Assembly: GCA_018238545.1 (NCBI GenBank)
Contig: JABCTC010000048.1
Location: 1 to 26,064 of the forward strand
DNA: 26,064 nucleotides
DNA from: Candidatus Heimdallarchaeota archaeon
Lineage (GTDB): Archaea; Asgardarchaeota; Heimdallarchaeia; Heimdallarchaeales; Heimdallarchaeaceae
Direction of reading: 5' to 3'
The notes beneath the pieces were generated by a model. That model was not told the DNA's origin, searched no databases, and saw nothing but the letters and a program-made list of their open reading frames with translations. A program made the position numbers and the translations under genes. Of this stretch, positions 21,273-24,615 are shown in pieces; the stretch's first letter is position 1, and each line of letters starts with the position of its first letter.

Positions 21273-22280
21273 TTGTCGTTAAGGGGATATATTGTTAAAA
21301 GAGTGTTGTATATCGTGCCAGTAATGCTAGGCATAACATTGATGAATTTTACTTTAATTAATGTAAGCCCAGGAGATCCAGTAATAGTTCGTCTGGGACT
21401 AATACATTGTGAAACACCTGAATGTTACAACTCAGCGTATAACAGAGAAGCAATAGAAATGGGGCTACTAAACAATGATATGTATACTGTTCCATGGTTT
21501 GAAAGATATGTCTCTTTTGTAAATGATTTATTACATTTCGATTTTGGGCGATCGTGGTATAACACGCAAGCGGGTGAAGGGATACCTATATCAGAAATTA
21601 TTATGAACCATGCACCCTACACATTAATCCTGAATACTATTTCTTTCATCTTATCGCTATTAATGTCCACAGCAATAGGAGTGATATCAGCTACTAGAAG
21701 AAGAAGTATATGGGATAAAGGACTCACAATTGCAATGTTGTTTGGATACTCAATGCCACTTTTCTGGCTAGCGAAATTACTAATGTTACTATCATTTGAG
21801 TTGTTCAATTTTACAGGAGTTACAAACAAAGATGCGTTCGTAACACCTATACTTCTTAATCCAGCATTCTACAAATACTTGATACTGCCGACACTAGCGT
21901 TAACTTTAGGGCACCTGGTCTTCATGGCACGATTAATGCGCTCACAGTTGTTAGAAATATTAAGACAAGATTACGTGACAACGGCGAAAGCAAAAGGAGT
22001 ATCTAATAGAGGAGTAATTTACAAACATGCTTTCAGAAATGGGTTGCTTCCAATAGTAACAATAATCGGAAATTCACTGCCAGGATTGCTAGGTGGAAGT
22101 GTAATGGTGGAAAGCATATATGGTTGGCCTGGGCTCGGAACTATCTTTTTAGAGGGGGCCTTATTCAGGGACTACCCTATGATGATGGCGACAAATACAA
22201 TTTTTCCTTTCCTTTTTCTCGTAGCGCGTTTACTCACGGATATCACGTATGTCTTTATTGACCCGAGAATTAAATATTAA
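21273..22280 (+). CDS. dppB: Peptide/nickel ABC transporter permease (DppB/OppB family)
   Basis: YIVKR, PGDPV, DFGRS, P.FWL, EAA region QDYVTTAKAKG..HAFRN, GSVMVESIYGWPGLG, RDYP, DPRI. Confidence 0.92.
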   Translation: MSLRGYIVKRVLYIVPVMLGITLMNFTLINVSPGDPVIVRLGLIHCETPECYNSAYNREAIEMGLLNNDMYTVPWFERYVSFVNDLLHFDFGRSWYNTQAGEGIPISEIIMNHAPYTLILNTISFILSLLMSTAIGVISATRRRSIWDKGLTIAMLFGYSMPLFWLAKLLMLLSFELFNFTGVTNKDAFVTPILLNPAFYKYLILPTLALTLGHLVFMARLMRSQLLEILRQDYVTTAKAKGVSNRGVIYKHAFRNGLLPIVTIIGNSLPGLLGGSVMVESIYGWPGLGTIFLEGALFRDYPMMMATNTIFPFLFLVARLLTDITYVFIDPRIKY

Positions 22281-22609
22281 ATTCTCTTCTTTTCCTTTGT
22301 CCTTCACACCGTTCTATCTTTTTGGCTTGGGTTAGTAATACTCTTTATGGCCTTAGGACGTCTAGTGTTTATGGCTAGATTAATGCACTCACAGCTGCTA
22401 GGAATATTAAGACAAGATTACGTAACAACAGAAAGCAAAAGGAGTATCAATTTATGGTTGGTCAGGGCTAGGAACAATCTTTTTAGAAGGTACGCTTTTC
22501 TGTGATTATCCCAATGATGATGGCTACCAACACAATCTTTCCTTTAGTAATTTAGGTGCATCTACTCAATAATATTTTGTTTGTTTTCGTTGACCATCGT
22601 ATGACATGA
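22281..22609 (+). pseudogene. Degraded, internally deleted dppB-like permease paralogue
   Basis: Fragments FWLGLVIL, LGRLVFMARLMHSQLLGILRQDYVTT, (2-nt deletion) KAKGVS joined directly to IYGWSGLGTIFLEGTLFCDYP, (+1) MMMATNTIFP, stop, ..VFVDHRM, collinear with 21273..22280. The 5' boundary is uncertain (clear from about 22320). Confidence 0.85.
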
Positions 22610-22629
22610 ATTTTTTACAAATTCTTTAG

Positions 22630-22772
22630 AAGTGCCTGAGCACATAATGGGGACGCCACTTACCCTCCTACACCACCCACAGCTTCTTGCAAAGGTGCTT
22701 ACGGTTCGCTTTGAGGTTTCTGTTGGATGTAGCCCCGAGGATCACCATGGGACTAGTGCATAGCTACAATCC
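22630..22772 (-). ncRNA. Candidate structured small RNA (~143 nt), family not recognised
   Basis: 73/140 G+C at 22631-22770 in AT-rich flanks; no ORF in the track; helices with G-U pairs on the minus strand; TATA box 24 nt upstream. Confidence 0.65.
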
Positions 22773-22795
22773 TTCAAAGTATAATCTACACTACC

Positions 22796-22803
22796 TTATT
22801 TAA
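22796..22803 (-). promoter_or_regulatory. TATA box (TTAAATAA) for the candidate ncRNA
   Basis: Correct archaeal spacing to the G at 22772 that opens helix 1. Confidence 0.55.
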
Positions 22804-22926
22804 GCACCCAAAAAAATGCACAAAAAAGAATGTTATAAAACATTAGTACTCTTTCTTTTTTTATTTTCTTGTTTTTAAGTATCACAAGATTAAAAACAAT
22901 TCTTGCATAACTAATTTATTAGCATC

Positions 22927-24615
22927 ATGAAGCCTTTCTGGAATAAGCTTTACCACTTCTTTGTTAACCCCTTATTATTTGTTGTTGGCATAGTAATTTT
23001 TATTCTGGTAATTGTTGTTAAGTTTGTTTTTCTTGTTTATGAAACACTCATCCCTCGAGGTTTACGTGAAATTGTTCCTCATATGGTTTTATGGAGAAAG
23101 TATCTTCTTTATGTTTCCAATTTATTCGCTCCTCAAGAGGAGTTTGATGCTATCGAAGTCGAAGAAAAGGTTCATGAGTTGGTTAGCAAAGAGGACAAGA
23201 TTAACAAGGCTTATCCTATTCAGAGAGGTGTTGGTGAAACATACGACCATGTTTTGATTTTTGTTTTAATCATCGTAGTTTCTATTGTTGCTATTGGCAG
23301 TGCAACAACTAACTTTGATGAATTCGTTAACGATGTGCTTGAACTATTACATATTTCCAATCTAGAATGGTATGGGTATTTGCTTATCGGTGTTGTTTTC
23401 TCTACTGTTATGGGTATGTTATCAACAATTGCAACCATTTTTGGTCCAGTCTATGCAATTTTTCATAAGTCTAGTTTAAGAATGGTTAAGATGGGTGCTT
23501 ACAGCTGGGGAACAATTTACCAGAAACTAGAAAATCTTTTTTCCCTTCCTTATATTGCTTCAAAGGCCTCCTTCACTTTTTTTGACGCTCCCCCTATATC
23601 TGAAGAAACTTTCAAAGAATTCAGAAAAGATGTCATGGGTGATTTCGGGAAGATAACTAGCAGAGTTTCTTCGATTTTGAGCTCTTCCTCAATTTCTTTA
23701 CCTGTTCAAACAAGAGAACTCTACAAAGAACTGATGTCAACAGATTTAGAAGATAGACTTGATATGACAAAGATCACTGAATCAACTTCTAGAGCTTTCT
23801 CTTTACTTATCTGGCAAAGTGAAACAGCTGTTATACCATGGAGAAAGGAACCAGGTTTACTTGGTTTTGCTGAAAAAAACAATCTCAAATACAAAGATGC
23901 CAAAAACACTTTTATCTTTATAACTAACAAGCTAAAAGAAGATTTTGTCTCAAAAACATTCTATGATTCAATCCTTCTCACTGGAGCTCTAAAGGGAGTT
24001 ATCAACACTGAAACAAAATATGGTTTACAAATGGATGATCTAGAATATAGCAAATTGTCATTTGCTTTAGCATTGGGAACACAAAGATACATTTTAGATC
24101 ATTTTTCAAAAAATAAATTTAGCGTACGTTTTAAAACAAAAATAAGAAATGTTCTATTCGGGTTCATTGTTCCAGTAGTTGAACTAACTTCAATCTTTAT
24201 CTCCTATTTCAAACACATAGGAAATAGTTTCAAGATGAATTTTGCTAAGGGTTGGTCAAAGAAATTTGGGAGATTCTTCTATGAAAGATTCAAGGAGATA
24301 CAGACAGGATTAAGAGTGAAAGCATATGAGGAAAAAGATGAAGAAGAAAAAGAGTTTGAAAAGGAAGAGGAAAAAACTAGAAACATTTTCATAACAGGCT
24401 TGTTTTTCATATTGCAGGTGATCCTTGCACTACCTCTGAGTTTGTACTTCTTTGCAAAATTGTTCTATTTGATATTCCGAGAAATCTTTAGAAAGAAGAA
24501 ACCTGAAGAGGTAAAAAGGAAAAAATTCGAAAAGGAAATAGCAAAAGAATCACTAATAACCATGTATGACGAAATTTACACTAAATTGGTTTTAGATACT
24601 TTCTATTATACATAA
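22927..24615 (+). CDS. Uncharacterised multi-pass membrane protein, paralogue B of 3088..4869
   Basis: 562-aa ORF; shared motifs PRGLRE.VP, YPI.RG.GE, IATIFGP.YA.FH, FSLPY, FFDAPPIS, PWRK, TGALKG, ALALG.Q.Y. Confidence 0.85.
   Translation: MKPFWNKLYHFFVNPLLFVVGIVIFILVIVVKFVFLVYETLIPRGLREIVPHMVLWRKYLLYVSNLFAPQEEFDAIEVEEKVHELVSKEDKINKAYPIQRGVGETYDHVLIFVLIIVVSIVAIGSATTNFDEFVNDVLELLHISNLEWYGYLLIGVVFSTVMGMLSTIATIFGPVYAIFHKSSLRMVKMGAYSWGTIYQKLENLFSLPYIASKASFTFFDAPPISEETFKEFRKDVMGDFGKITSRVSSILSSSSISLPVQTRELYKELMSTDLEDRLDMTKITESTSRAFSLLIWQSETAVIPWRKEPGLLGFAEKNNLKYKDAKNTFIFITNKLKEDFVSKTFYDSILLTGALKGVINTETKYGLQMDDLEYSKLSFALALGTQRYILDHFSKNKFSVRFKTKIRNVLFGFIVPVVELTSIFISYFKHIGNSFKMNFAKGWSKKFGRFFYERFKEIQTGLRVKAYEEKDEEEKEFEKEEEKTRNIFITGLFFILQVILALPLSLYFFAKLFYLIFREIFRKKKPEEVKRKKFEKEIAKESLITMYDEIYTKLVLDTFYYT

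Follow-up and report, generated by a model that had tools for sequence, protein, structure and literature searches.

The window analysed here is a stretch of 26,064 nucleotides from Candidatus Heimdallarchaeota archaeon (contig JABCTC010000048.1, positions 1 to 26,064, forward strand). Two of its plus-strand ORFs (21273-22280 and 22927-24615) are separated by 645 nt, within which the GC content reaches 0.55 (22650-22749) as compared to 0.22-0.31 in the neighbouring intergenic flanks. The minus strand carries a TATA-like box, TTAAATAA, at 22803-22796, and a GC-rich island starts about 24 nt farther on, just as a sequence-only reading of the window had described. That reading took the island for a single RNA gene of ~143 nt that was not a tRNA, 5S, SRP or RNase P RNA and that might represent an undescribed archaeal ncRNA class, possibly an H/ACA-like guide or a tRNA-interacting RNA. 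No match to a known family emerged: ARAGORN recovered no tRNA or tmRNA at the locus, and Rfam returned nothing at the gathering threshold and, at E <= 10, only two chance-level matches, both outside the core of the element delineated below. This element, at 234 nt, is too short for a protein-coding gene and has no conserved ORF—those inside it encode only 38-43 aa, all on the opposite strand, and its copies differ by indels of 1, 3 and 4 nt. The folding energy of the single sequence has a z of about +0.5 on both strands, i.e., it is no more stable than shuffled sequence; hence, the support for a structure presented below comes from the comparison of copies and not from folding energy. Between the 335-aa gene and the element lies a further stretch, 22281-22599, which is missing at the orthologous loci of two other genomes (G002 and G016); within it, 22353-22448 is an 84% copy of an internal piece (21906-22003) of the 335-aa gene. 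This stretch looks like a pseudogene fragment or a partial duplication beside the element.

The supposed single RNA gene is a dispersed repeat with many copies. A search of the genome that carries the window (3.63 Mb in 128 contigs) yielded at least nine copies, which are 77-97% identical and of which two lie at contig ends; the copies are situated in short intergenic gaps between unrelated genes. A search of the genus listed some 80 more matches, full or partial, spread over 14 of the 23 other genomes, all from Candidatus Heimdallarchaeota, and none of 16 genomes from other genera of the order had a match. Similarly, an exact search with a 32-nt right-end pattern hit 37 contigs among 185,579 species genomes, and these come only from Candidatus Heimdallarchaeota MAGs, many of them cold-seep MAGs. 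The part common to the copies spans 22600-22838 with sharp ends; the element itself, whose ends are defined by the empty sites described below, occupies 22601-22834 on the minus strand, and its conserved unit continues to 22601. The unit thus amounts to ~175 nt plus flank, rather than ~143 nt. The same boundary is seen in public metagenome contigs: depth jumps from ~16 to 120-300 across 22600-22815, with loose ends at 22600 from which different flanks branch, and no joint spanning the element was seen among these DNA contigs. In two cases contigs start or stop within the element (G000:C37:1-106 and G000:C6:1-123), indicating that the repeat breaks assembly. Matches to the 3' part only in G011 and G023 were likewise set aside as merely contig ends.

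The repeat has a weak match at the 3' end of a 405-aa ORF with OrfB_IS605 and Cas12f1-like TNB domains, which identify the product of this ORF as a TnpB. About 20 intact tnpB genes (with both PF01385 and PF07282) are encoded by the same genome, and a profile of four resident TnpBs matches the structures of ISDra2 TnpB and Cas12f with E = 2e-8; a search of PDB sequences with a single resident TnpB, in place of the four-sequence profile, gave no match. The motifs DLG, ExYTS and NADVNAA are invariant in the resident TnpBs. The RuvC D-E-D residues are also kept in these proteins (e.g., L052:206-1432), and the cysteines of the CxxC..CxxC zinc ribbon are apparently absent.

The homology of the repeat to these genes extends to both of its sides. 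On the 3' side, an nhmmer profile of the repeat aligns, in coding-strand orientation, with the final 70-90 nt of some 20 tnpB ORFs, up to the stop codon. A covariance model, built from the second (A2) of two alignments (A1 and A2) of 21 full copies from 11 genomes, scores the mini-copies at 133-204 bits and recovers about 20 tnpB 3' regions with E = 1e-12 to 1e-6. The matching segment of the window copy (22647-22736, minus strand) is a relic of the tnpB 3' coding end corresponding to the core of an omega RNA scaffold; it contains an invariant AAAGCGAACCGUAA, and its relic codons AVGGVGG-stop (22683-22660) correspond to the ..SVGGVGGY at the C-terminus of TnpB. The region 3' of tnpB and the mini-elements have in common a set of hairpins, a motif resembling CUAAAG, another hairpin in subterminal position and ..TCAT as the terminus. 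In the window copy, the right end (22601-22646, minus strand) comprises the fifth stem (GUGC/GCAC), UUCUAAAG, the subterminal hairpin GAAUUUGUAAAAAAUUC and a terminal ..CAUGUCAU with the TCAT end motif. On the 5' side, full-length elements start with TTAT(R)A..T-run and carry GGTGTTTTTATAG ~25 nt upstream of the tnpB start, and the repeat begins with TTATAAC..T-run followed by the box GGTGTTTAAATAG. Its left end proper (22805-22834, minus strand; AACAUU..T-run..TGTRCA palindrome..T-run) resembles the left ends of full-length tnpB elements and is partly inverted-repeat-like with respect to the right end; there are subterminal palindromes or hairpins near both ends, TGTACA at the left and GAAUUUGUACAAAAUUC at the right. 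The TATA-box-like candidate promoter (22796-22803, minus strand; consensus TTTAAATA) is near-invariant in the 21 copies and homologous to the tnpB box. Taken together, the 5' and 3' matches indicate that the repeat joins the left end and promoter of a tnpB element to the 3' end of tnpB and the right end, the gene in between having been deleted. The element is a non-autonomous member of the IS200/IS605 group, of the IS1341-like, TnpB-only lineage, and therefore of a known kind rather than an undescribed class of archaeal ncRNA. A full-length tnpB element with exactly the right end of the mini-elements was not found: none of the 37 right-end contigs has a tnpB upstream, all of these matches being mini-elements or contig-end pieces. 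The closest right ends are those of the TnpB of the C76 type and of related genes in G006 and G008.

The RNA fold of the element is under selection. RNAalifold predicts six helices from the 21 copies, in which 46 pairs are paired at 97.3% across the copies. Twelve of these pairs are compensatory as compared to 3.5 +/- 1.4 in shuffled alignments (0/500 as high) and 1-3 in slid controls, an excess that points to selection on the fold, and each helix holds at least one such pair. Helix 1 of the earlier reading (22772-22762 with 22734-22725) and its apical stem CACUA/UGGUG (22758-22754 with 22747-22743) are both present and show compensatory changes in other copies; with the predicted RNA 5' end (about 22775-22772) this module occupies 22725-22775 on the minus strand and accounts for 17 pairs, five of them compensatory. 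Pair counting over the copies also bears out the strand assignment by G-U pairs: several of these that are nearly fixed are compatible with the minus strand alone. Farther 3', the pairings backed by covariation are CCGU..GCAYCUU/AAGRUGU..GYGG (stem 3, 22704-22673), GGG/CCC (stem 4, 22665-22650), GUGC/GCAC (22643-22632) and GAAUUU/AAAUUC (22624-22608). They replace the earlier closures of domains 2 and 3, CCUC/GAGG and AAGUG/CACUU, neither of which other copies preserve. Both the 'hinge' and the apical-stem loop differ freely from copy to copy, and as a consequence neither the suggested CCCAU/GUGGG pseudoknot, whose loop lies in this freely varying part, nor the ACA box of the hinge is conserved (the hinge sequence is AACGAAC in 8 of the 21 aligned copies). 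A candidate tertiary pairing, UCCU/AGGA, might connect the internal loop of helix 1 with an invariant GGAGG, both sides being invariant. In the model alignments, stems 3, 4 and 6 and the TCAT end are common to mini-elements and full-length elements, with compensatory differences, and helix 1, a module specific to the mini-elements, has no counterpart in the full-length tnpB 3' regions and is present in a second mini-element family. Thus, the general proposal of the sequence-only reading is supported, in that the minus strand carries a structured RNA module preceded by a conserved archaeal promoter-like box of its own, even as its class assignment fell.

The most serious competing account is that the element is an inert transposon relic, mobilised now or earlier via its ends, with the RNA part a functionless leftover of tnpB and its omega RNA, and with the fold reflecting recent descent or a single-stranded DNA structure used in transposition. 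Copies do decay in place, as would be expected of such relics: one (C43) is 5'-damaged, and such decay means that the copies need not all be functional. Moreover, an orthologous pair of copies is 95% conserved, no better than its flanks at 95-97%, and the missing cognate tnpB among the 37 right-end contigs would also fit a relic. However, neutral decay would not be expected to leave compensatory pairs in every one of the six helices, 12 in total and many more than in either the shuffled or the slid controls; furthermore, the internal helices, and not subterminal hairpins alone, match the scaffold of full-length omega RNAs, and the promoter box is near-invariant. We accordingly consider it unlikely that the elements are inert. 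A separate instance of decay is G000:C45:48233-48324, a relic orthologous to an intact copy in G010:C139, in which the left end and scaffold core remain, and the promoter, the 5' strand of helix 1 and the right end are deleted.

The mode of insertion is apparent from sites with and without the element. Two precise filled/empty pairs (G007:C146 versus G009:C102, and G007:C35 versus G011:C78) show that TTAT runs straight into the right flank at the empty site, and that the filled site has the insert exactly 3' of TTAT and ending in TCAT. The TTAT is single in the empty sites and pre-exists the insertion, without any target duplication; two rougher empty sites in the genome of the window are consistent with these. 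Most copies have a conserved TTAT on their 5' side, as do the full-length tnpB elements, and in the window this motif lies at 22835-22838 (minus strand) as pre-existing host sequence directly 5' of the insert. Insertion 3' of TTAT without duplication is the IS200/IS605 mode. Consequently, an empty site has the form of a target motif adjoining a guide match, which is the geometry, in terms of sequence, of TnpB omega RNAs; the motif at this position in ISDra2 is TTGAT, in place of which the present elements have TTAT. The orthologous loci of G002 and G016 were considered as a clean empty site for the window copy and rejected, since 22281-22850 is missing there as a block.

These sites also decide on a second account, in which the element would be an ordinary MITE derived from a DDE transposon (IS630/Tc1-like), flanked by inverted repeats at its termini and a TA duplication, and would carry omega-RNA-like sequence by chance. 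The ends of the consensus are inverted-repeat-like (15 of 18 bases by eye), RNAalifold pairs the two ends with each other, and TA is found on both sides in over 90% of the copies; given these features, we tested a TA-duplicating MITE model and weighed it seriously. IS630-linked TnpB elements with symmetrical ends have been described (PMC10691335). Nevertheless, the precise empty sites rule out such duplication, as both TAs pre-exist in the TTAT-plus-flank sequence. Additionally, in the full-length relatives the left flank is fixed and the right flank varies, and no DDE_3 transposase was detected in the genome of the window; a DDE origin is thus very improbable. Of the MITE that the sequence-only reading had itself named as its contrary case, the many dispersed copies were found but not the target-site duplications, of which there are none at the empty sites.

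Least credible of all is a host-encoded, multi-copy ncRNA family, be it of H/ACA-like guides or tRNA-interacting RNAs, despite the promoter box and conserved fold of every copy and the CGAACC that is invariant among mini-elements and complementary to the T-arm motif: the ACA is not conserved (8 of the 21 copies have ACG instead), neither a K-turn nor a match to an H/ACA family (E <= 10) was found, the CGAACC is a relic of TnpB codons that read GCGATCCG in the full-length tnpB genes, i.e., with a CGATCC that is not complementary to GGUUCG, and the copies have transposon-like boundaries and differ in presence and absence at orthologous sites.

Hence, we propose, with a probability of about 0.85, that 22601-22834 (minus strand) is a tnpB-less mini-element that resembles a palindrome-associated transposable element (PATE) and bears a stand-alone omega RNA used in trans by a resident TnpB. 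Under this proposal, the promoter-bearing left end is joined to the tail of tnpB and the right end, and the latter two would jointly encode the omega RNA scaffold. The promoter would start the RNA near 22775, and the transcript would fold into the six helices and cross the right end (..TCAT, 22601) into the flank, the first ~16-20 bases of which would act as the guide. By analogy with TnpB omega RNAs, such a ~20-nt guide would be placed at 22581-22600 (minus strand), which is unique to the locus; among the flanks of eight copies examined, none had a second TTAT-adjacent match within its genome. The RNA would then be bound by a TnpB from a full-length element elsewhere in the genome, those with the C76-type right end being the most similar candidates, although the use of the mini-element RNA by a diverged TnpB is uncertain. 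Upon excision of the element, the rejoined site would consist of TTAT plus the flank, and cleavage by TnpB at this site, followed by repair from a sister copy, would restore the element. Thus, the RNA is probably a guide in the broad sense, as the sequence-only reading had surmised, even though the H/ACA-like form of guide it had in mind is not borne out. If so, the best candidate for an undescribed RNA in the window turns out to be the guide RNA of a mobile element, which removes a false lead.

Precedents for such an arrangement are available. PATEs are core-deleted derivatives of IS605/IS1341 elements (PMC3119063) and are said to 'often encode omega RNAs', for which TnpB from other IS elements would have to act in trans (PMC10055086). 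PMC10691335, with reference to Altae-Tran 2021, states that stand-alone omega RNAs proved functional in trans with compatible effectors. The Heimdall elements share with such stand-alone or PATE-borne omega RNAs (PMC10691335; Meers et al. 2023, PMC10055086) a short, protein-less and dispersed form, IS605-type ends, a scaffold beside the right end, a guide position in the flank and effector elements elsewhere in the genome. They differ from them in having the left-end tnpB promoter fused straight to the scaffold, in the 5' helix 1 that is absent from full-length relatives, and in that neither a tnpB parent with the same ends nor a Y1 transposase was found in the genus; further, they reside in a Heimdall (Asgard) archaeon. 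With haloarchaeal PATEs, such as HqIRS71 of Haloquadratum walsbyi (PMC3119063), they have in common the lack of a target duplication, a short targeting oligonucleotide and proliferation despite the scarcity of intact tnpA, but the host phylum and the sequences are different, and RNA structure and promoters are not part of that study. Finally, like the omega RNA of ISDra2-type TnpB (PDB 8H1J, 8EXA), the predicted RNA overlaps tnpB 3' end sequence, finishes at the right end and combines a multi-helix scaffold with a 3' guide from the flank, in keeping with the match of the resident TnpB profile to the ISDra2 proteins. Unlike it, the present RNA is not encoded within a tnpB gene. With its mapped ends, TTAT motif, promoter, covariation-backed fold and empty sites, the element constitutes a well-defined Asgard case of a proposed stand-alone omega RNA, and might be of use in testing whether TnpB can be guided in trans in archaea that are near the lineage of eukaryotes.

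A more far-reaching possibility, which we hold to be improbable, is that the mini-elements are dispersed guide-RNA genes for the resident TnpBs with roles beyond self-retention, or else that they and the TnpB-only elements move by an undescribed mechanism. Were they such guide-RNA genes, they might function in host regulation or in conflicts between elements, and helix 1 might be a new, mini-specific 5' module that makes the RNA independent of the context of the tnpB mRNA. As to movement, no Y1 transposase (PF01797) was detected in the genome of the window or the 23 other genomes of the genus (MAGs of 72-92% completeness), and beside this, both TnpB-only elements and mini-elements show clear insertion polymorphism between species. 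The combination restates the question of how TnpB-only elements and their mini-elements move. Seven serine recombinase genes are present in the genome of the window, and two of them adjoin ~648-aa TnpB-like ORFs of another family. These pairs (G000:C82:18288-20625 and G000:C71:12971-15306), each with a PF00239 gene beside the ~648-aa ORF, are IS607-like with an oversized TnpB. About 40 nt 3' of these ORFs lies a stretch of 85-97 nt, presumably the right end of that family, which recurs at no fewer than 27 places in the genome.

Two further loci extend the range of gene-less elements in the genus. At L023:1181-1505 (G012:C81), a mini-element copy is interrupted within stem 3 by an insert of ~315 nt, the final ~90 nt of which are the repeated stretch found just 3' of the large IS607-type TnpB ORFs; the insert is thus another kind of gene-less mini-element, lodged within the first. 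In a different species, L026:1340-1632 (G018:C71) represents a second, diverged family of tnpB-less mini-elements. It shares helix 1 and the scaffold core with the first family, but its apical stem differs, and its right end, ..AAAATCTCATCAT, is nearer to those of the full-length elements.
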